From NCBI RefSeq assembly GCF_988243305.1, contig NZ_OZ547136.1: DNA of 64,000 nt; one strand, written 5' to 3'. Positions 3,028-39,559 of this stretch are shown one piece after another. The notes beneath the pieces were generated by a model. The model was given only the letters and a program-made list of their open reading frames with translations, did not search any database and was not told the DNA's origin. How positions within the stretch are numbered: position 1 is the first letter of the stretch; each line of letters opens with the position of its first letter. A program made the position numbers and the translations under genes.

Positions 3028-3928
<901 letters not shown>

Positions 3929-6073: not shown

Positions 6074-6128
6074 TGTTTAAATACCTCCGAGGCAGAAATT
6101 ACGTCATCAGACGTCGCTAATCCATGAC

Positions 6129-6143
6129 TTTACGTTGTTTTAC
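6129..6143 (-). promoter_or_regulatory. CpxR-P binding box GTAAA-N5-GTAAA in the cpxR/cpxP divergent promoter region
   Basis: The plus strand reads TTTACGTTGTTTTAC, which is GTAAAACAACGTAAA on the minus strand. This is an exact match to the tandem pentamer consensus. An extra GTAAA lies at 6174-6178. Confidence 0.8.
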
Positions 6144-6222
6144 ACCCCCTGACGCATGTTTGCAGCCTGAATCGTAAACTCTCTATCGTTGAATCGCGAC
6201 AGAAAGATTTTGGGAGCAAATG

Positions 6223-6723
6223 ATGCGCATAGTTACCGCTGCCGTCATGGCCTCAACGCTGGCAGTCAGTTCATTAAGCCACGCTGCTGAAGTCGGTTCA
6301 GGCGATAACTGGCATCCGGGTGAAGAACTTACGCAGCGCAGTACGCAGAGCCATATGTTCGACGGCATAAGTTTAACCGAACATCAGCGTCAGCAGATGC
6401 GAGATCTTATGCAACAGGCCCGGCACGAACAGCCTCCTGTTAATGTTAGCGAACTGGAGACAATGCATCGCCTTGTCACCGCAGAAAATTTTGATGAAAA
6501 CGCTGTGCGCGCACAGGCAGAAAAAATGGCGAATGAGCAAATTGCTCGTCAGGTTGAGATGGCAAAAGTCCGCAACCAAATGTATCGCCTGTTAACGCCG
6601 GAGCAGCAAGCGGTTTTAAACGAGAAACATCAACAACGAATGGAGCAGTTGCGCGACGTGACGCAATGGCAAAAAAGTTCATCGTTGAAGCTATTGAGTA
6701 GTAGCAACTCACGTTCCCAGTAG
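6223..6723 (+). CDS. cpxP: periplasmic Cpx pathway inhibitor/adaptor CpxP
   Basis: Track ORF 6220..6723. The K-12-type protein starts [11 protein letters not shown] at the second ATG (6223). Signal peptide and two LTXXQ motifs (LTEHQ, LTPEQ). Confidence 0.95.
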
Positions 6724-6732
6724 TAAACCCTG

Positions 6733-6790
6733 TTTTCCTTGCCATAGACACCATCCCTGTCTTCCCCCACATGATGTGGGGGTTTTTTTT
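6733..6790 (+). ncRNA. cpxQ: CpxQ sRNA (processed 3' UTR of cpxP mRNA)
   Basis: A 58-nt stretch, UUUUCCUUGCCAUAGACACCAUCCCUGUCUUCCCCCACAUGAUGUGGGGGUUUUUUUU, lies directly after the cpxP stop and ends in the terminator. It matches my recollection of CpxQ. The 5' end is set by RNase E processing and cannot be read from DNA. Confidence 0.6.
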
Positions 6791-6793
6791 ATC
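6747..6793 (+). repeat. prophage att core, copy 1 (int-proximal), 47 bp
   Basis: GACACCATCCCTGTCTTCCCCCACATGATGTGGGGGTTTTTTTTATC is identical to 38352..38398. The flanking bases differ on both sides. Confidence 0.92.
6764..6790 (+). terminator. cpxP/CpxQ intrinsic terminator
   Basis: CCCCCACAT-g-ATGTGGGGG hairpin followed by T8. Confidence 0.9.
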
Positions 6794-6875
6794 AATTACT
6801 TACATGCAATCAAAAGTAAAAACAGGTACTTATCGAAAGCTGTAAGGGTTTGGAGCGGTTTCAAAATTTCTTGAG

Positions 6876-6894
6876 TGTGGACACTATGTGGACA
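6876..6894 (+). promoter_or_regulatory. tandem TGTGGACA repeats, candidate integrase arm-type binding sites
   Basis: TGTGGACActaTGTGGACA sits between the att core and the int stop. The same motif pair recurs at 38285..38303 next to the other att copy. Confidence 0.55.
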
Positions 6895-6909
6895 TTCAGA
6901 GGGGGAAAT

Positions 6910-7890
6910 TTATAACGTCACTCCGCCTTTTAGTGGATTCAGAGCGACGGCATTTTGCAGATAGTCAGGCGCAAGGTGCGCATAGGCCATCGTCTGCTGA
7001 ATGCTCGCATGTCCCAGAATCTGTTGCAGTGCGATTATATTGCCCCCATTCATCATGAAATGGCTTGCGAATGTATGCCGCAGGATGTGGGTTGCCTGAT
7101 TGGGTGGTATATCAGGTTTCACTCTGCGTAAAATCCCGCAAAATTTCTCATAATCAACTTTGAATAATTTGGCGCTGGCCTCCTCTTTAACTTTTTTCTC
7201 CAGTTCCTCAGAAATCGGCACGGTTCGCTTTTTACCGTTTTTGGTTTTCAGGAAGGTAACCCTGCAATTTGTAATCTGTGCTGGTTTTAGCGTGGCAACT
7301 TCCGTCCATCTTCCTCCGGTGCTCAGACATAAAAGCGCGACAAGTAAGTCATCACCAGCCAAAACATTTAACAGTTTTTCGATTTCTGCTTTTTCCAGGA
7401 ACGTCATTTCAGGGTTGGCCTCCGCCAGTGGCGGCAGTCCGTGAATTGGGTGTTGCCCGGAAAATTCATCCAATTGAATTAATTTTGTGAACATGCCGGA
7501 TAATCGGTACATGTCACGGTTTATCGTTGCGGCACTGATACCATCACGTAGTCGCATGGAACGATAATCCATCAAAGCCCTTTTGCTCATCCTGCTCACT
7601 GGTATATCACCTATGCCGCTGATGGTTTTGAGTAGATGATTAAACTCTTTTGTTCCATGCTCGTGGTTTTGCCCGTGATATTTCCACCAGATGTCCAGCA
7701 ACTCACTCAAAGTCCGGCGGTCTGCTCGCTGGCCTCCCCATTCTTTCTGACTGGCATTGGCGATTGTGTATCGCTCAAATGCTAGTGCTTCAGCTTTTCT
7801 TTCGAATTTCCTGCGGATGCGTTTTCCGTCGCGACCGCGAGGTCTAATGTCCACTTCATAGCGACCATCATCGAGCTTCTTAATTGCCAT
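6910..7890 (-). CDS. int: P2-type tyrosine integrase
   Basis: Track ORF 6910..7920. The P2 Int-like N-terminus MAIKKLDDGRYEVDIRP starts at 7890, with GGAGGG 8 nt upstream. The C-terminus has the HxLRHTFASH...Y tyrosine-recombinase motifs. Confidence 0.93.
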   Translation of the reverse strand: MAIKKLDDGRYEVDIRPRGRDGKRIRRKFERKAEALAFERYTIANASQKEWGGQRADRRTLSELLDIWWKYHGQNHEHGTKEFNHLLKTISGIGDIPVSRMSKRALMDYRSMRLRDGISAATINRDMYRLSGMFTKLIQLDEFSGQHPIHGLPPLAEANPEMTFLEKAEIEKLLNVLAGDDLLVALLCLSTGGRWTEVATLKPAQITNCRVTFLKTKNGKKRTVPISEELEKKVKEEASAKLFKVDYEKFCGILRRVKPDIPPNQATHILRHTFASHFMMNGGNIIALQQILGHASIQQTMAYAHLAPDYLQNAVALNPLKGGVTL

Positions 7891-7959: not shown

Positions 7960-8253
7960 TTAGCCAATCCTTTTCGCGGAGTGGTTGGACTCTGTTGACT
8001 CTGGCCCAATGTGCGCGAGAGCCGGTGCGATTTGTCCTGCGTCCGGCGCGGTTTTATCTGTCATAAGCCATAGAGCATATTTTTGGAATGTGGGATGCAT
8101 AGTGATTTTTAGCAAAGCTGTGCCACCGGGTTCAAAGTTTCCTCCTTCATATTTTTTAAGTGTGCTTAGCGGTAACTCTATGATTTCACAGAATTTTGAT
8201 TGGCTTAGCCCTTCAGCCTCACGCAAGGCCTTAATCTTTTCGCTTAATTTCAT
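7960..8253 (-). CDS. C: immunity repressor, P2 C-like (HTH), of a non-P2 immunity type
   Basis: 97-aa track ORF. HTH in the N-terminus (GLSQSKFCEIIELPLSTLKKYE). The C-terminal GQIAPALAH block is shared with P2 C (recollection); the rest diverges. Confidence 0.85.
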   Translation of the reverse strand: MKLSEKIKALREAEGLSQSKFCEIIELPLSTLKKYEGGNFEPGGTALLKITMHPTFQKYALWLMTDKTAPDAGQIAPALAHIGPESTESNHSAKRIG

Positions 8254-8374: not shown

Positions 8375-8662
8375 ATGAGGGTACCATATATGGACGCTGA
8401 AAATTATGTGATTCAGTATCCGCTTGATGCGGTTCATGTGGATAAATTTGCTGATTTATTAGGGAAGCCAAAGACAGCCGTCAGTGAAATGGTGAAGGCA
8501 AATAAATTACCAATTATTGAATTGCGTGATCCTTGCAAACCGAAGGCTCGTGCCGGTGAAAAATGGGTTTTCATTCCTGAGTTTAATCGCGCTGTACGTG
8601 AGGCGTTTTATAACCGACCGGTTGAACAGCGTGATGCATGGCTTTTGTGGATGGGGTTGTGA
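8375..8662 (+). CDS. cox: Cox-like excisionase/early repressor
   Basis: 95-aa track ORF; an alternative ATG lies at 8390. The end ...RDAWLLWMGL resembles P2 Cox ...RDGWLMWLGL (recollection). It is the first rightward gene, opposite C. Confidence 0.8.
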   Translation: MRVPYMDAENYVIQYPLDAVHVDKFADLLGKPKTAVSEMVKANKLPIIELRDPCKPKARAGEKWVFIPEFNRAVREAFYNRPVEQRDAWLLWMGL

Positions 8663-12684: not shown

Positions 12685-12943
12685 GTAAAAATACAGCGTG
12701 ATTTTATATGTCTTTGAATGGATTATGCGAAACACCTCTAAGGTAGATGAGGAGCAATAGCGTGTTGAATCAGAAGGCTAAATTGTATTGAATCGTTAGC
12801 ATGTAATTGAAGGCAGCTATTTGATTCGAGTCATAAAAGAGCATCTATTTCGGTTAATAAAACCATTGCGAGTGACTTTATGTCGAAGCATAATTCATCT
12901 CGAGCGAAGTCTTGCTAGTCTTTCATCGGATTGATGACGGGCG

Positions 12944-12975
12944 CAAAAAAACCACCCTGGCAGGTGGTTTTTTTG
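12944..12975. terminator. bidirectional intrinsic terminator
   Basis: A7-ACCACC-ctggca-GGTGGT-T7. The A-run and T-run flank the stem, so it can terminate transcription from either side. Confidence 0.75.
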
Positions 12976-12986
12976 TTTGAAGCATA

Positions 12987-13100
12987 CTAAAGAAAAATAC
13001 TTACATGGATATTACTGACGTTTACTGACAAACCACTCGGACTACCATATGGATAGCCAAAGAGGGCCAGAACGAGAATGCAGTAATAGCACTTCTTCAT
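12987..13100 (-). CDS. 37-codon hydrophobic mini-ORF (candidate small membrane/toxic peptide)
   Basis: Below the track's length cut-off. The minus strand reads AGGAGG-cgat-ATG AAG AAG TGC TAT TAC TGC ATT CTC GTT CTG GCC CTC TTT GGC ... TAG, giving MKKCYYCILVLALFGYPYGSPSGLSVNVSNIHVSIFL. The bidirectional terminator lies 12 nt after its stop. Confidence 0.45.
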   Translation of the reverse strand: MKKCYYCILVLALFGYPYGSPSGLSVNVSNIHVSIFL

Positions 13101-13822
13101 ATCGCCTCCTGTAAGCAGAGGGCAATTTCCGCCGATATATGCGCTTCTAAGGCGGAGTGACTATTGAGCGAAGTCTTGCCCTGAAATAATGCTCTGTTTA
13201 AACGCAAAGTGATCTGGCATATCACCGAACAGAGGACCTGAACAACACAACATATAGTATGTCGTTGTTTCTGGTTGCATTTTATGTTGTGTAATACTGG
13301 TTTTGCATCAAGGATGTTTGAGCTTTTTTTGATATAGCTCAAAGTAAAAAGCAGAGACTACGGATGATAAGGTCTTGAAAGCAATGTAAATTTTTTAAAG
13401 TTGTGAGTGGCTAGAAATGCACAGTTTCAATATGGCGGATTTAAACAAGTAATTAAAAATAGCGACACAAATTCCAATAAAATCATTAAGTTGCGTTTTC
13501 TGTGGAAACTTCGGTGACTCTGAAATTTTCTTTTAGTATCGCTGAGGTTTAACAACTCGCTGCGCAAGTAGTTAGTGTTTTTTTTAACTCAATATTCTGA
13601 TTTATAAGGTTTTTTATAAATCGTGGGCTGGTTGCGCATATTCATCTCGTGTTATCAGCAAAGATAAGCTCTATATGCAGAACTGAATGCATATATGATG
13701 TCGAAAATGTTATGGGAAAACGTGGATTAGTGTTATAGTAATGGCTGAAAAACAGCCTTGACATAAAATAACAACTGTGATATGGCTGTGCATACTTAAC
13801 TTTTTTAACGTAGGAGGCAACC

Positions 13823-14308
13823 ATGAGCTATGCAGCTAAAAAACTGCTTGACCGCTATTGGGATCGCCGACTACCTGTCGATCCGTTTAAGCTTGCTAAA
13901 GCGTGGGGTGCTCGTGTTGAAGCACTTGAGGAATCGGCTTATAACAACGATGGGTTAAGCGGTCTGGCTGTCATCAAAAAGGGTGTCCATAGGATTTATT
14001 TTGATTCTAGTGAACATTCTAATCGTCAACGTTTTACTGTTGCACACGAGTTAGGTCATCATGTGCTGGGGCATACCCAGGACGGAGAGTACCATCGGGA
14101 TAATGTCGGGAATTATTCAACAGGTGCTCGTGATTACCGTGAGGTTGAAGCAAACAAGTTTGCTGCTGAGTTGTTAATGCCTGAGTCTGCTATACGTCAA
14201 TTGGTATCCAGAGAAGGTATTGATAGCACTTTGAGATTAGCAAGCATCTTTAATGTATCAGAAGCCGCTATGCATTGGCGCTTAAAGAGCTTAGGAATGG
14301 CTTATTAA
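13823..14308 (+). CDS. ImmA/IrrE-family (Peptidase_M78/DUF955) zinc metallopeptidase
   Basis: 161-aa track ORF with AGGAGG 5 nt upstream. HEXXH motif in FTVAHELGHHVLGH, followed by EVEANKFAAELLMPE, the characteristic third-ligand/helix block of the family. Confidence 0.85.
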   Translation: MSYAAKKLLDRYWDRRLPVDPFKLAKAWGARVEALEESAYNNDGLSGLAVIKKGVHRIYFDSSEHSNRQRFTVAHELGHHVLGHTQDGEYHRDNVGNYSTGARDYREVEANKFAAELLMPESAIRQLVSREGIDSTLRLASIFNVSEAAMHWRLKSLGMAY

Positions 14309-14335
14309 TTAGCCTTTAACTTTTAACCTGTTTAA

Positions 14336-14374
14336 AATCACCTTTACGTTTGTACATGTAAGGGTGATTTTTTT
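14336..14374 (+). terminator. hairpin plus T7 between the peptidase gene and the 2-TM gene (terminator/attenuator that covers the downstream RBS)
   Basis: AATCACCTTTA (14336-14346) pairs with TAAGGGTGATT (14359-14369) over 11 bp, including one G-U. T7 runs directly into ATG 14375. The 3' arm contains the only SD-like AAGGGTGA for the next gene. Confidence 0.6.
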
Positions 14375-14974
14375 ATGGCTGATATTGATTTATCTGGACA
14401 GTCCCCAGAGCAAGGAACCACTCCTAAGGGCGATTTAGATCCTGATATCCTTATAAGGCGAGATAGACGGGATGGTATAGAGCGTAGAAGTATGCGATTA
14501 GTGCTCTCTGCCGTTGTGCTTTGTTTTGCTTGTACATTTCTATGGCAGGGGCTTAACTTTGCTTTGGCTGTTGGAAATGGCTTGCTGGAAGCGAAAAGCA
14601 GTATTGCCGCAGCGATAACACAAAAAGTAGATACACAAACTTGTGTTTCAGCAGAAAAATGTTCTGCTTTATCTTCGGATCCGAAGATGGCTGATGAGAG
14701 GATAACACCATCTTCAGACACTAATAAAGTTAGAAAATCTATTTCTGGTTTATCCACCGATTGGTTATCGGCCAGTTCTCTAATAGCTATTGTTGCATTC
14801 ATCCTTGGTGTGGGTTTAACTTTGCTTTTGACTCTTCTTAAATCAGCATTTCAACACCCGACAGATAAAGACTTTAGAACAAAGTCGACATCTAATACTA
14901 TTGAGTTGGCCACGCCAATCAGTGAATTAATAATTGGTGTTCTGAATATAATTAAAGACAAACTATCTAAGTAA
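14375..14974 (+). CDS. hypothetical two-transmembrane-helix protein
   Basis: 199-aa track ORF. Charged N-terminus, then hydrophobic helices LVLSAVVLCFACTFLWQGLNFALAV and LIAIVAFILGVGLTLLLTLL. I recognise no family. Confidence 0.65.
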   Translation: MADIDLSGQSPEQGTTPKGDLDPDILIRRDRRDGIERRSMRLVLSAVVLCFACTFLWQGLNFALAVGNGLLEAKSSIAAAITQKVDTQTCVSAEKCSALSSDPKMADERITPSSDTNKVRKSISGLSTDWLSASSLIAIVAFILGVGLTLLLTLLKSAFQHPTDKDFRTKSTSNTIELATPISELIIGVLNIIKDKLSK

Positions 14975-15016
14975 AGCATTAGTTGTGATTTTTTATTGGT
15001 TTTAGTGATAATACAT

Positions 15017-15049
15017 CTCCAGTACTTATTGTTACTGGAGAGTATTTTT
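15017..15049. terminator. hairpin between convergent genes
   Basis: CTCCAGTA-cttattgt-TACTGGAG followed by agTATTTTT. Lies between the stops at 14974 (+) and 15057 (-). Confidence 0.65.
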
Positions 15050-15056
15050 AGTCGTT

Positions 15057-15998
15057 TTATATTTTTAATGTTAGTGAATGATATTCACGAGAGTTCACGT
15101 TCGATGTGATGTAATCGGGGGCGTTAACACCAAGAATCGCAACGAGTAATCGGCAAATTAAAGCCTGCATTTGTTGTAATATGTCATCTCCATATTGATA
15201 ATTGTTAATAGTGGTAAAGCCAAGTGGTTGACCATGAAACATAGCTTCATGAAAGTTTTCATTGCGGATGTTTGTAATGTTTTTTTTACCTGTAACCCAT
15301 GATGGTCGTGGTATTCCATAAGTTTTGCAGATCCACTTCAAGCGCCTGGAGTGATTTAGAGTCTTTTCTGTACACTTGTTCTTTTCTGCCCATGTTAAAG
15401 CAAAGCAACTATCCAGTGCCATATAAAGATACTGGAATTTTTCGAAGCTAAGGTATTGTGGGTTTTGGGATAAAAATAGTGCATGCACTATTGCTGCTAT
15501 ATTTATTGGTGCGTGTTTGGTTTTTGTCTCGCTAGACATGTATTTGAGTGCTAATTCTATAACCTCTTTTTCAGAGCACTTGACCAGAATAAAGTCAGTT
15601 AATTTGCTGGGTTTTATTGGGGTTGCGTCTAAAAAACCGGCATCAGTAGTTGTTAATCTTATCCCTTTGAAAAAAGACAGACACCACACAGCAAAATTGA
15701 GAGTTTCTAGTGAAGATGTATTTTTTAATTTTAGTGAGTGTGTTTTGGGTAAGCCAAATACTCGTTGGCTAAAAGGCATTGTGGATATGCCTCCATTGAG
15801 GTTATATACTTCTTGGTTTCCTGGGTATATCCAACCGTTAATAACATTTCTGTGATTGTTTATAAGATTTGTTTTTTCCGCTAGACCGGGTAAAGTAAGT
15901 AAAGAAAAATCATCAGTTTCAACGTTAACTTCTACTGGATAGTATCCAAACTCAGCTTCAATATCATTGGATTGCTGTTCGTCAACTTTACCTTGCAT
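15057..15998 (-). CDS. hypothetical 313-aa protein with a C-terminal HEPN-like RNxxxH motif (candidate abortive-infection RNase)
   Basis: Track ORF with GGAG 8 nt upstream of the ATG. The codons CGC AAT GAA AAC TTT CAT at 15266..15249 encode RNENFH (R245-H250) in a predicted helical C-terminal region. AT-rich codon usage unlike the rest of the prophage. Confidence 0.6.
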   Translation of the reverse strand: MQGKVDEQQSNDIEAEFGYYPVEVNVETDDFSLLTLPGLAEKTNLINNHRNVINGWIYPGNQEVYNLNGGISTMPFSQRVFGLPKTHSLKLKNTSSLETLNFAVWCLSFFKGIRLTTTDAGFLDATPIKPSKLTDFILVKCSEKEVIELALKYMSSETKTKHAPINIAAIVHALFLSQNPQYLSFEKFQYLYMALDSCFALTWAEKNKCTEKTLNHSRRLKWICKTYGIPRPSWVTGKKNITNIRNENFHEAMFHGQPLGFTTINNYQYGDDILQQMQALICRLLVAILGVNAPDYITSNVNSREYHSLTLKI

Positions 15999-16236
15999 AC
16001 ATTGCTCCGGTCAAAAATAGGCTCGATAATTCTCGTAAGCCTATCATGTTCGCAAAGTATCCATACCTGTGGATTTTGTAAATTTAAGTTGATTTGTCAT
16101 TAAATAAGCCGTTGCATGCAACAAGTGAATGTTTTTGCATGCGTCGGGGATGTCCGTTCAGGCTGCGTGCGGTCAGGACTGGTGCGGATCCATAGTATCT
16201 ATGCAACTGCATTAAAACCGCCCCATGAAGCGGGCG

Positions 16237-16255
16237 GGCGAGGCGGGGAAAGCAC
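16237..16255 (+). other. cos: P2 cos cohesive-end sequence (19 nt)
   Basis: GGCGAGGCGGGGAAAGCAC is an exact match to my recollection of the P2 cohesive end. It is located just upstream of the Q/P packaging genes, as in P2. Confidence 0.85.
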
Positions 16256-16397
16256 TGCGCGCTGGCGGTGGTGCTGATTTTATTTTTTCAGCGTCTCAGC
16301 GCGTCGTGACGGCGTTTGGATTGTGCGCCGGGGCGTTGGTGTGTCTGTGGGGTGTTTTGTGCGGTGGTGAGCGTGTGAGGGCGTGATGACGGGGTGT

Positions 16398-16419
16398 AAA
16401 AAAGCCGCCCGCAGGCGGC
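16398..16419 (-). terminator. intrinsic terminator after gene Q
   Basis: The minus strand reads GCCGCC-tgcg-GGCGGC-TTTTTT, beginning 5 nt after the Q stop. Confidence 0.8.
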
Positions 16420-16424
16420 GATGT

Positions 16425-29529: not shown

Positions 29530-30131
29530 TGTATAACGCCATCTTGAATAGTAAACTTATTGCCACAAAGGCAGGAGAGATTACCGTTTATAACTATGAC
29601 AGTGAGACACGGGAGTATATTTCTGCATCAACTGAATATCTTGCTGTGGGTGTCGGTATCCCTGCATATTCCTGTTTAGATGCTCCTGGCACACATAAGG
29701 CTGGTTATGCAATCTGCCGTTCGGCAGATTTAAACTCATGGGAATATGTGCCAGACCATCGCGGTGAAATCATCTATAGCACCGAAACAGGAGAATCGAA
29801 AGAAATCACAGCTCCGGGTGATTATCCTGAAAATACAACCACTATCGCCCCGTTAACGCCATACGATGAATGGGATGGTGAGAAATGGGTAACAGATACT
29901 GTGGCACAGCATAGCGCCGCAGTAGGCGCGGCAGAAGCACAGCGCCAGTCACTGATTGATGCAGCAATGGCTTCCATTAGTCTGATTCAGCTGAAATTAC
30001 AGGCCGGACGGAAGTTGACGCAGGCAGAAACAACCAGCCTTAACGCTGTGCTGGATTACATTGACGCGGTGACGGCAACTGATACCAGCACCGCGCCTGA
30101 TGTCATCTGGCCTGAACTGCCGGAGGCGTAG
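29526..30131 (+). CDS. G: tail fibre assembly chaperone (G/Tfa/U-like), partner of the expressed H variant
   Basis: 201-aa track ORF overlapping the H stop. Its C-terminal ...LDYIDAVTATDTSTAPDVIWPELPE resembles the Tfa/Mu U family ending. Confidence 0.85.
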   Translation: MMYNAILNSKLIATKAGEITVYNYDSETREYISASTEYLAVGVGIPAYSCLDAPGTHKAGYAICRSADLNSWEYVPDHRGEIIYSTETGESKEITAPGDYPENTTTIAPLTPYDEWDGEKWVTDTVAQHSAAVGAAEAQRQSLIDAAMASISLIQLKLQAGRKLTQAETTSLNAVLDYIDAVTATDTSTAPDVIWPELPEA

Positions 30132-30543
30132 GCCATTCAATATCTGGCGCACCGGAAGTATCGACCAGCTCCAGTGCGTCCAGATAATCCAGCCACAAAT
30201 TATATTGCGCCAGTTCCTCACCTTTCAGACGACCAATAGCCGCTTTACCAGGCCATTGTTTACTGTTCATGTATTCGTTGGCCTGGTTAATCAATTGCTG
30301 TTTTTCCAGTTCGGCTGCAGCAATCTGTTCCTCATGTGTTGGTGGTGGAATTTCAGACCATGCAGGAAAACCATTTTCTCCAGCGATGCGGATTTTCCCT
30401 TCCGGCGGTAATCCGGAAAACTCAATATACACCTGCTCGTCAACTTCAACAGCATCATCTGGCCATGATTCAGCTTGAGTGTAATCCTCTTTCATCTCCA
30501 GCGGATAGAAAGAGTTTGTAGTCGCGGAATATATATAATTCAT
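30103..30543 (-). CDS. alternative tail fibre assembly chaperone (G'/U'-like), silent in this orientation
   Basis: 146-aa track ORF on the opposite strand inside the invertible segment. It ends ...LDYLDALELVDTSGAPDIEWPTPP, the same family ending as G. Its 3' end overlaps the G 3' end by 29 bp. Confidence 0.82.
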   Translation of the reverse strand: MNYIYSATTNSFYPLEMKEDYTQAESWPDDAVEVDEQVYIEFSGLPPEGKIRIAGENGFPAWSEIPPPTHEEQIAAAELEKQQLINQANEYMNSKQWPGKAAIGRLKGEELAQYNLWLDYLDALELVDTSGAPDIEWPTPPAVQAR

Positions 30544-30564
30544 TTCTCATTCCATATAGCTAAA

Positions 30565-30915
30565 TTAACAGCCTAACGCTAAAAATGAAGCGCCGAGACC
30601 TGGAGTACTGGCTCTGGATATAAATTTAACCGGGTCGGGACTAAAACCTGCACAGGCAATATAACCAACAGCCCCGCTATCTGGTGTGTAGTCTTGTGAG
30701 ACCAAAACACGCAGACATCTGTTTGGAAATGCAATCGGGAAATGGGTTACTACATCCTGTGCAATGCCTGGTGCGCCGATTGAGCCCCACTGAAGAATAA
30801 AACCTGATGGTAATTTTTGATATCCAGTACCTGAAACAGAAAGCGTGAAGCTACCCATATCAGGTATCTGATTCGCCCCTGTCCCTACATTCCTTTTAGC
30901 CGCTTCTCCCAAACC
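30565..30915 (-). CDS. alternative tail fibre C-terminal cassette (Hv'), start-less; fused in frame to H after inversion
   Basis: This is part of the track ORF 30565..30957. The GGT TTG GGA GAA codons at the crossover are in the same frame as in H, so inversion gives ...[26 protein letters not shown]...[13 protein letters not shown].... The portion 30916..30957 lies outside the segment and is not a real N-terminus. Confidence 0.8.
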
Positions 30916-30929
30916 AACGTTTATGAAAA
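30904..30929 (-). promoter_or_regulatory. 26-bp invertase crossover site, right (inverted relative to 28979..29004)
   Basis: The plus strand reads TTCTCCCAAACC-AA-CGTTTATGAAAA. The reverse complement shares the core and one full half-site with the left site. Confidence 0.8.
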
Positions 30930-30984
30930 TGCAGAGATAACGGGCAACTGGCATCATCTCCGGTTTTTATTCAGGGGGATGCTC

Positions 30985-31578
30985 ATGCTTATTGGCTATG
31001 TACGCGTGTCAACAAATGACCAGAACACGGAATTGCAGCGTAACGCGCTGGAGTGCGCAGGATGCGAGCGGATTTTTGAGGATAAAATCAGCGGCACGAA
31101 GTCCGACCGACCGGGACTGAAAAAACTGCTCAGAACATTATCATCAGGTGACACTCTGGTAGTCTGGAAGCTGGACCGGCTGGGGCGTAGTATGCGGCAT
31201 CTGGTCATTCTGGTTGAGGAGCTGCGCGAACGCGGCGTTAATTTTCGCAGCCTGACAGATGCTATTGATACCAGCACGCCGATGGGGCGTTTTTTCTTTC
31301 ATGTGATGGGTGCCCTGGCTGAAATGGAACGAGAACTCATTGTCGAGCGGACTCGCGCCGGACTGGAAGCGGCCAGAGCTAAAGGTCGTATTGGTGGCAG
31401 ACGTCCGAAGCTCACCGCGAGTGAGTGGGAACAGGCAGGACGGTTGCTGGTTGCGGGTGAATCACGTCAACGCGTGGCGCTGATTTTTGATATTGGCCTG
31501 TCCACGCTCTATAAAAAATTCCCCTCATCAGCGGCAAAGAATAAATTGTGTCATCCCTTAGCCAACCGGGACAAATAG
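30985..31578 (+). CDS. serine DNA invertase (Pin/Gin/Cin/Hin family)
   Basis: Track ORF 30979..31578. ATG 30985 has GGGGG 6 nt upstream and gives MLIGYVRVSTNDQNT (catalytic Ser motif). The rest is collinear with Pin/Gin by recollection (DRLGRS, GRFFFHVMGALAEMERE, C-terminal HTH ...STLYKK). Confidence 0.92.
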   Translation: MLIGYVRVSTNDQNTELQRNALECAGCERIFEDKISGTKSDRPGLKKLLRTLSSGDTLVVWKLDRLGRSMRHLVILVEELRERGVNFRSLTDAIDTSTPMGRFFFHVMGALAEMERELIVERTRAGLEAARAKGRIGGRRPKLTASEWEQAGRLLVAGESRQRVALIFDIGLSTLYKKFPSSAAKNKLCHPLANRDK

Positions 31579-38021: not shown

Positions 38022-38240
38022 ATGTTTCATTGTCCTTTATGCCAGCATGCCGCACATGCGCGTACAAGCCGCTATATCACTGACACGACAAAAGAGCGTT
38101 ATCACCAGTGTCAGAACGTGAATTGCAGCGCCACGTTCATCACCTATGAGTCGGTACAGAGATACATCGTGAAGCCGGGAGAAGTCCACGCCGTAAGGCC
38201 GCACCCGTTGCCGTCAGGGCAGCAAATTATGTGGATGTGA
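38022..38240 (+). CDS. ogr: late-gene transcription activator Ogr (Zn finger)
   Basis: Track ORF 37947..38240. The internal start MFHCPLCQHAAHARTSRYITDTTKERYHQCQNVNCSATF at 38022 gives 72 aa with the CxxC...CxxxxC motif of P2 Ogr. Confidence 0.92.
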   Translation: MFHCPLCQHAAHARTSRYITDTTKERYHQCQNVNCSATFITYESVQRYIVKPGEVHAVRPHPLPSGQQIMWM

Positions 38241-38250
38241 TCACAAAAAT

Positions 38251-38276
38251 AGCCCCTCAGTTGAGGGGCTTTATTT
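38251..38276 (+). terminator. intrinsic terminator after ogr
   Basis: AGCCCCTCA-gt-TGAGGGGCT followed by TTATTT. Confidence 0.75.
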
Positions 38277-38284
38277 ATGGTCGA

Positions 38285-38303
38285 TGTGGACGCTATGTGG
38301 ACA
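38285..38303 (+). promoter_or_regulatory. tandem TGTGGAC(G/A) repeats, candidate integrase arm-type sites (second arm)
   Basis: TGTGGACGctaTGTGGACA has the same motif, spacing and orientation as 6876..6894. Confidence 0.55.
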
Positions 38304-38351
38304 GCGGTTGACATAAATCCATTTATATCATCAGGTTAGGTGCTTTTTTGT

Positions 38352-38398
38352 GACACCATCCCTGTCTTCCCCCACATGATGTGGGGGTTTTTTTTATC
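38352..38398 (+). repeat. prophage att core, copy 2 (ogr-proximal), 47 bp
   Basis: Identical to 6747..6793. Carries a second copy of the last 44 nt of CpxQ, including the terminator hairpin and T8. Confidence 0.92.
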
Positions 38399-38476
38399 CT
38401 CAATTTGCCTGCTGCTTAATGCATTGCAGATGATTTGCTTCCGTTATACTAGCGTCAGTTGATAGCGGGAGTATTT

Positions 38477-39379
38477 ATGAATCAATCTTATGGACGGCTG
38501 GTCAGTCGGGCGGCGATTGCTGCAACGGCGATGGCTTCACTGCTATTGCTGATTAAAATTTTTGCATGGTGGTATACCGGGTCGGTGAGTATTCTCGCCG
38601 CGCTGGTGGATTCGCTGGTGGATATCGGCGCGTCGTTGACGAATTTACTGGTGGTGCGATATTCCCTGCAACCTGCCGACGATAATCACTCGTTTGGTCA
38701 CGGTAAAGCTGAGTCCCTCGCGGCGCTGGCGCAAAGTATGTTTATCTCCGGTTCGGCACTATTCCTCTTTTTGACGGGTATTCAACATCTGATATCTCCA
38801 ACACCGATGACAGATCCAGGCGTCGGGGTAATCGTGACAATTGTGGCGCTAATTTGTACGATTATCCTTGTCTCGTTTCAGCGGTGGGTGGTGCGCCGGA
38901 CGCAAAGCCAGGCGGTGCGGGCTGATATGCTACATTACCAGTCTGATGTTATGATGAACGGCGCAATTCTGCTGGCGCTGGGGTTGTCCTGGTACGGCTG
39001 GCATCGCGCCGATGCTCTGTTTGCATTGGGAATCGGCATCTATATTTTATATAGCGCGTTACGCATGGGATATGAGGCGGTACAGTCATTACTGGATCGC
39101 GCATTGCCTGATGAAGAACGGCAAGAAATTATTGATATCGTGACTTCCTGGCCGGGTGTTAGCGGCGCTCACGATCTTCGCACGCGGCAGTCAGGGCCGA
39201 CCCGCTTTATTCAGATTCATTTGGAAATGGAAGACTCTCTGCCTTTGGTTCAGGCACATATGGTGGCGGATCAGGTAGAGCAGGCTATTTTACGGCGTTT
39301 TCCGGGATCGGATGTGATTATCCATCAGGACCCCTGTTCCGTCGTACCCAGGGAGGGTAAACGGTCTATGCTTTCATAA
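38477..39379 (+). CDS. fieF: cation-diffusion-facilitator Fe/Zn efflux transporter FieF (YiiP)
   Basis: Track ORF 38459..39379. The K-12 start [20 protein letters not shown] at 38477 gives 300 aa. Confidence 0.95.
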
Positions 39380-39559
39380 TCAGTATAAAAGAGAGCCAGA
39401 CCCGCATTTTGTGTATAAAATACCGCCATTTGGCCTGACCTGAATCAATTCAGCAGGAAGTGATTGTTATACTATTTGCACATTCGTTGGATCACTTCGA
39501 TGTGCAAGAAGACTTCCGGCAACAGATTTCATTTTGCATTCCAAAGTTCAGAGGTAGTC

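Follow-up and report, generated by a model that had tools for sequence, protein, structure and literature searches.

A P2-family prophage of probable WPhi type attached inside the CpxQ small RNA gene, where phage DNA appears to supply the 3' end of the RNA

What becomes of a small regulatory RNA, and of the terminator that it shares with a protein gene, when a prophage is integrated inside both? The question is raised by a stretch of 64,000 nucleotides (contig NZ_OZ547136.1 of assembly GCF_988243305.1; hereafter the window), in which a P2-like prophage stands between cpxP and fieF. CpxQ is a 58-nt RNA that RNase E releases from the cpxP 3' UTR, with its 5' end as the seed (PMC6755755). RNase E processing, Hfq binding and the repression of nhaB, skp and cfa have been described for it (PMC6755755, PMC9438474, PMC4817254), and the CpxQ region is exceptionally conserved among enterobacteria (PMC9438474). 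In the window, cpxP occupies positions 6223-6723 on the plus strand according to the list of open reading frames and the RefSeq annotation of the near-identical lysogen MNCRE44, whose start is followed here (an in-frame ATG lies also at 6220). The MG1655 record gives the ncRNA cpxQ (b4716) as 58 nt, from TTTTCCTTG to GGGGGTTTTTTTT, and its counterpart in the window is found at 6733-6790 on the plus strand, with agreement at 57 of the 58 positions. The sole difference falls at 6774 (attR counterpart 38379), which is C in K-12 and A in the window, and which comes third in the 3-nt loop of the terminator in the predicted fold. Rfam at the gathering threshold gave no match to a CpxQ family anywhere near 6733, so that the identification of the sRNA is based on the annotation of MG1655 and on the literature. 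RNA folding predicts a single-stranded 5' end, a small hairpin and the terminator; the latter, at 6764-6790 on the plus strand, is the intrinsic terminator of both cpxP and CpxQ and consists of a hairpin with an 8-bp stem (CCCCCACA/TGTGGGGG, 6764-6782) followed by T8 (6783-6790). The conserved internal stretch, the terminator and the U-tail together form the usual Hfq-binding part of such sRNAs.

The prophage is bracketed by a perfect direct repeat of 47 nt (GACACCATCCCTGTCTTCCCCCACATGATGTGGGGGTTTTTTTTATC), at 6747-6793 and 38352-38398. Sequence comparison shows mismatching bases on both sides of it, and it is the only perfect long direct repeat within the window. About 1e-19 such pairs would be expected by chance in 64 kb, and on this ground a chance repeat was rejected. 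The first copy, attL, starts at the 24th base past the cpxP stop codon (TAG, 6721-6723) and covers nt 15-58 of CpxQ, that is, its last 44 nt, plus ATC. In all these points the original prediction was right: it had placed a perfect 47-bp repeat around a P2-like prophage, starting 24 nt after the cpxP stop, and had recognised in it the last 44 nt of a 58-nt CpxQ plus 3 nt, which the MG1655 cpxQ annotation bears out. The hairpin and T8 are predicted as a terminator at the second copy, attR, as well. Beyond attR lies fieF (yiiP; 38477-39379, plus strand), the upstream region of which is unaltered from the end of the core onward. When 6100-6793 was joined to 38399-39400 and compared with the empty cpxP-fieF junction of K-12-like sequence, the alignment was free of gaps, with 11 substitutions in 1696 nt, and the insertion is therefore precise.

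Between the two copies lies a prophage body of 31,558 bp (6794-38351) with the P2 gene order from int to ogr: integrase, C, Cox, B and A, then a cargo region, then portal, terminase, capsid, lysis, baseplate, tail-fibre, sheath, tube, D and ogr. Judged by its gene content (int, C, cox, B, A, the late genes from portal to D, and ogr), the element is an apparently complete P2-family prophage. The gene next to attL (6910-7890, minus strand) encodes a P2-type tyrosine integrase of 326 aa, recognised by Pfam as Int_N and Phage_integrase and annotated as 'phage integrase' by RefSeq in a near-identical lysogen, exactly where an integrase had been predicted. It is followed by the C immunity repressor, an HTH protein (7960-8253, minus strand; Pfam and the RefSeq annotation of a related lysogen), and by Cox, excision directionality factor and repressor (8390-8662, plus strand; Pfam Phage_Cox and RefSeq annotation). 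At the far end stands the late-gene activator ogr (38022-38240, plus strand; Pfam Ogr_Delta, and ogrK of RefSeq in related lysogens), which has a terminator of its own at 38251-38270.

Some features of the prophage body and its surroundings are recorded here for their own sake. The cargo region (12685-16424, between replication gene A and portal) contains an M78/IrrE-type metalloprotease gene (13823-14308) matching the CapP-like and RmrA models of PADLOC, together with two ORFs of PHROG families of unknown function, at 14375-14974 (phrog_8096) and 15057-15998 (phrog_5937); among the cargo ORFs, PADLOC and Pfam recognise the protease only. In related lysogens the same slot is filled differently, in M217 and 4/2-1 for instance with a DEAD/DEAH helicase. 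In the region 30103-31578, oppositely oriented ORFs, annotated as tail-fibre assembly and gp53-like in related lysogens, stand beside a DNA invertase of the resolvase type (30979-31578; Pfam Resolvase and HTH_7), which points to a tail-fibre segment that can be inverted; the invertase of MNCRE44 is a pseudogene, being truncated. M217, 4/2-1 and MNCRE44 (loci L004, L005 and L006) have, between ogr and their P arm, an extra 642-bp gene (hypothetical protein WP_000416606.1) that is absent from the window, where ogr is followed by its terminator and then directly by the P arm. ISEc12 is found inside the replication endonuclease gene of M217 and beside the intact endonuclease gene of 4/2-1; both prophages contain an ISEc22 remnant, and M217 additionally IS150. 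From its sequence the M217 prophage, at least, looks defective, though its att junctions are intact. The only matches that Rfam gave in the window at the gathering threshold fall downstream of the prophage and correspond to ordinary chromosomal features, namely the ClpQY (hslVU) promoter element (54292-54349, minus strand) and the L31 ribosomal-protein leader (58961-59013, plus strand).

The exact 47-mer is present between ogr and int in the WPhi records AJ245959 and AY135739, and WPhi as well as four attP forms from IMG/VR, checked base by base, have the E. coli-type core. The Int of the window is 98.5-98.8% identical to WPhi Int, and the stretch from ogr to the core is 99% identical to WPhi. 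The element thus resembles WPhi in the 47-mer core between ogr and int, in the arm-site consensus and in the chromosomal place; it differs from it in the first 30 nt of the P' arm and in the early region (int through C, cox and B), which is 98-99% identical to the Yersinia phages HQ103 and L-413C and related Peduovirus records, with L-413C/HQ103 as the closest group and WPhi absent from the 25 best matches. It is very probably a WPhi/L-413C-type P2-family prophage (Peduovirus) at its normal attB inside the CpxQ gene, the phage supplying a replacement 3' end. Liu and Haggard-Ljungquist reportedly described the WPhi core, a 47-nt identity at 88.6 min, in 1999 in J Virol 73:9816. The site of WPhi and L-413C is MG1655 4104392, with identical cores, and no attB matching the WPhi core of L-413C was found in Yersinia genomes (PMC3448106). 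In addition, a prophage table contains the entry 'cpxP-fieF: Wphi1 (P2)' (PMC3032704), and elements about 31 kb long have been recorded in the cpxP-fieF interval (PMC7609406; also a 2026 Salmonella Infantis preprint). Phage type, core and chromosomal site are already described, and the attachment site is not a new one. A full-text literature search, with most subscription journals outside its scope, found no paper linking CpxQ to phage integration, and the CpxQ overlap of the WPhi site seems to be the only aspect unremarked in the searchable literature. The papers on the WPhi site do not mention the sRNA because CpxQ was named only in 2016.

Which DNA the 3' end of CpxQ consists of in a lysogen can be read from the loop base, the 28th of the core, which differs between the K-12 host and the phage core. 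Both copies in the window have A, the commoner host allele, so that the window alone cannot tell phage from host DNA and the assignment rests on other lysogens. A sample of 5426 complete E. coli genomes yielded 790-792 cpxP-int junctions, 784 ogr-side junctions and 4591 empty sites, each of the latter with a single copy of the core, as expected if the 47-mer is the attachment site; lysogens at cpxP-fieF amount to about 14.5% of these genomes. Alleles were counted as exact 95-nt matches, at attL for C only. A was found at 3215 and C at 894 of the 4591 empty sites, and A at 384 and C at 152 of the 783-784 attR junctions. The host C allele was exact in none of 526 attL junctions (Fisher p = 2.5e-37 for the C-allele counts at attL versus attR). 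In the lysogens M217 and 4/2-1, the sequence of which was inspected directly, attL has A and attR has C. WPhi and every attP form seen have A, K-12 has C, and among the IMG/VR contigs A is present in all attL (about 30) and in four attP forms, and C in three attR. Since attL is never C and attR often is, the strand exchange must lie to the left of the hairpin loop, and the allele distribution indicates that the hairpin and U-tail which CpxQ has next to cpxP come from the phage and that the host's own 3' part is found at attR. Neither of the two 95-mers is matched exactly at some 480 empty sites and 250 attR junctions.

These counts also decide how far the original prediction of a 47-bp phage-borne replacement can stand. 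The replacement is real, attL being A and attR C in C hosts, but its extent was overstated, only the 26-46 bp to the right of the crossover being phage DNA; in CpxQ at attL, at least 15 nt at the 5' end would be host DNA, and the hairpin and U8 phage DNA. The further claim, that integration regenerates the cpxP 3' UTR, CpxQ and the terminator at the int-proximal junction, holds as it was made, attL of the window being identical to the commonest empty-site allele. The cpxP terminator and the CpxQ sequence are consequently unaltered in the window.

The place of the crossover can be bounded further by a comparison across species, in which one genome per species was scanned and at least 120 loci of 8 kb each were listed. 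On the left, the P arms of several phage lineages depart from the host sequence just before ACACC. On the right, in addition to the loop polymorphism, attL hairpins differ from native hairpins from core position 22 onward, in a comparison of attL with the empty sites of related species sharing the same flank rather than with attR of the same genome; among the at least 120 loci listed, there was no attR partner of a lysogen of another genus. Examples are a Rahnella flank joined to a Buttiauxella-like hairpin (L201) and an Enterobacter flank with TCATGATGA in place of ACATGATGT (L195), and smaller hairpin differences from species sharing the cpxP flank are seen at L191 and L183. Together these limits enclose a 20-bp stretch, ACACCATCCCTGTCTTCCCC (6748-6767), within which we infer that strands are exchanged, the right bound being derived from the empty sites of related species. 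Among the matches listed, TTTTCCTTGCCATAGACACCATCCCTGTCTTCCCC is invariant in about 110 Enterobacterales species, and the hairpin varies with compensating changes. No polymorphism that would narrow the crossover inside 6748-6767 was found in about 200 sites.

Inside the bounded stretch falls the dyad AGACA-CCATCCC-TGTCT (6746-6762), which in the RNA fold is the small CpxQ hairpin, with a 5-bp stem and a 7-nt loop (6751-6757), and which in the DNA offers candidate core-type Int sites around a 7-bp overlap. The anticodon stem-loop, which likewise has 5 bp in its stem and 7 nt in its loop, is a classic place of crossover in tRNA att sites. That CCATCCC (6751-6757) is the overlap is proposed tentatively, at somewhat less than even chances, from the symmetry of the dyad. 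Two candidate arm-type Int sites, TGTGGACA, stand in the P' arm (6794-6909) at 6876-6883 and 6887-6894, and two more, TGTGGACG (38285-38292) and TGTGGACA (38296-38303), in the P arm (38271-38351), so that the sites are paired on both arms; the P2-type arm-site consensus is tgTGGaCa (PMC3448106). The P arm also contains, near the core, a motif match to an IHF site, TATCATCAGGTTA (38326-38338), and other lineages, too, have retained this IHF-like motif, TCA-N4-GTTRG, in their P arms.

The same arrangement is spread over several genera. Among the matches listed, 44 attL loci have an Int homologue (55-100% identity) at a distance of about 150 bp from the core, and the hosts of these loci include E. 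coli, Salmonella, Enterobacter, Klebsiella-like bacteria, Kosakonia, Yokenella, Serratia, Rahnella, Rosenbergiella and Pantoea-like bacteria, among others. Whatever the sequence of the hairpin, a complete hairpin and T-run are present in all 44, and at least three families of P/P' arms share the E. coli 47-mer. The spread of this integrase clade across Enterobacterales is attributed to its target being a 20-bp stretch that is invariant across the order. Variation of the terminator was noted along with this. Variants beyond the A/C loop are found at L188, L191, L192, L194, L196, L200, L203, L207, L041, L094 and L183; GGGG with T9 instead of GGGGG with T8 is seen at both attL and attR, and an interrupted tail, GGGGGTCTTTTTTTT, at some attL junctions (L041, L094, L183). 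In the window, the tail in question is the T8 at 6783-6790 and its attR counterpart at 38388-38395. In Serratia sp. L9 (L081, 7463-7810), a 66-aa integrase remnant stands beside a CpxQ with the E. coli-type hairpin ACATGATGT and not the Serratia-type GCCATGATGGC, which looks like a decayed prophage whose phage-borne hairpin has been left permanently in the host sRNA gene.

From these elements the following course of integration is proposed. The phage attP would include CpxQ nt 15-58 plus 3 nt, located between ogr and int and flanked by P2-type Int arm sites and an IHF-like site. The tyrosine integrase would exchange strands somewhere in 6748-6767, most likely in the 7-bp loop, and the resulting attL would be a chimera, with the 5' seed of CpxQ from the host and the terminator hairpin and U-tail from the phage. 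The host's 3' part would be shifted by 31.6 kb to attR, ahead of fieF, as a CpxQ fragment (nt 15-58) that is without 5' seed and RNase E site and that may act as a second terminator. In this way cpxP would keep a terminator and CpxQ its full length, by the same logic as at tRNA and tmRNA att sites; as in other att sites in RNA genes, the crossover lies upstream of the RNA 3' end, and the identity block ends 3 nt past T8. The sequence of attL suggests that CpxQ is made and functional in lysogens. No sigma-70-like promoter is predicted to drive the fragment at attR, which probably joins the ogr terminator in keeping phage read-through away from fieF. From the int stop to the core, the minus strand has no predicted terminator, and the hairpin read on that strand is not followed by a T-run, so that antisense transcription into CpxQ would be possible.

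Other readings of the locus differ widely in probability. A repeat that arose as a transposition target duplication, by homologous recombination or as an assembly artefact has nothing in its favour except the bare existence of a direct repeat, and its probability is negligible: in free phage genomes the repeat sequence occurs once, with an arm on either side, it stands singly at the empty site of thousands of genomes, a tyrosine integrase, Cox and arm sites adjoin the core, and about 790 independent complete assemblies have identical junctions. Transposon target duplication and assembly artefact were rejected on the single-copy attP and attB forms, the adjoining integrase module and the number of assemblies. 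More serious, if still unlikely, is the view that the phage simply targets an intergenic terminator and that the overlap with CpxQ is incidental, the identity block being a by-product of repeated integration and excision and not of selection. P2-type integrases act mostly between genes (PMC3448106), 17 years passed between the description of the site and the naming of CpxQ, and the block gives cpxP its terminator back as well, which might be of importance by itself. Against this, the bounds on the crossover enclose the invariant CpxQ body (6748-6767) and not the variable hairpin, and the 44 listed attL loci, with Int identity down to 55%, all have the complete hairpin and T-run, as would be expected under selection for an intact 3' end.

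The preferred reading, an attachment that leaves CpxQ intact, has also to be weighed against the opposite one, in which CpxQ or CpxP is lowered or changed by a foreign hairpin, by an altered U-tail or by transcripts running antisense from the C-int operon, and the Cpx response is affected by the prophage. Some attL junctions do have a weaker stem or a T-run that is interrupted (G4T9 in L191 and L194, GGGGGTCTTTTTTTT in L041, L094 and L183), and no terminator is predicted for the minus strand on the way from the int stop to the core; yet attL of the window is base for base the commonest empty-site allele, the E. coli polymorphism affects the third base of a 3-nt loop, and in every variant seen the stem is still rich in G+C and 7 T or more remain, so that an altered CpxQ is rated a little less probable still than an incidental overlap. 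Finally, the CpxQ fragment lies about 110 nt downstream of ogr both in the free phage and at attR, and it could in principle be more than a spare part: transcripts that read through the modest ogr terminator and end in CpxQ nt 15-58 might mimic CpxQ or compete with it for Hfq, or antisense transcripts from C-int might pass through CpxQ, and P2-family phages would by such means tune the inner-membrane stress response. This is a speculation to which very little probability is given.

Under the preferred reading, the site takes its place among known phage attachment sites in RNA genes. Within the same phage family, the 3' part of an sRNA gene serves as attB also at cyaR and rybB in E. coli W, B and Crooks (PMC3032704, Table 2); compared by literature only, these sites differ from the CpxQ site in the RNA, the core and the specificity of Int. 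Among tRNA and tmRNA genes, phage 186 uses tRNA-Ile, HP1 tRNA-Leu, and Fels-2 and SopEPhi ssrA (PMC3448106). With them the CpxQ site shares an identity block that extends from the crossover to the RNA 3' end, a 3' end supplied by the element and a host fragment displaced to the far junction; its candidate crossover place, a 7-nt loop on a 5-bp stem, would be like an anticodon stem-loop. However, CpxQ is an Hfq-dependent sRNA from an mRNA 3' UTR, so that the block doubles as the terminator of a protein gene, and the integrase acting at CpxQ is of P2 type and not of 186 type. Lambda is similar in having a tyrosine integrase, arm sites, IHF and a directionality factor, but its attB core is short (15 bp, between gal and bio) and lies outside genes, where no regeneration is needed. 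What is added here to the knowledge of this site is an allele-based proof of the phage-derived 3' end of CpxQ, a confinement of the crossover to 20 bp and the occurrence in many genera, which are useful details and no new principle.

The value of the finding lies mainly in annotation and in the planning of experiments. A prophage stands at the CpxQ site in about one in seven complete E. coli genomes, with a CpxQ terminator that is, on the allele evidence, phage DNA. In lysogens a truncated second CpxQ 3' fragment stands ahead of fieF, which affects read mapping, the design of probes and deletions of cpxQ. The natural hairpin swaps can be used to ask what the 3' module of CpxQ needs, and CpxQ is added to cyaR, rybB and ssrA as a regulatory RNA gene serving phage attachment.
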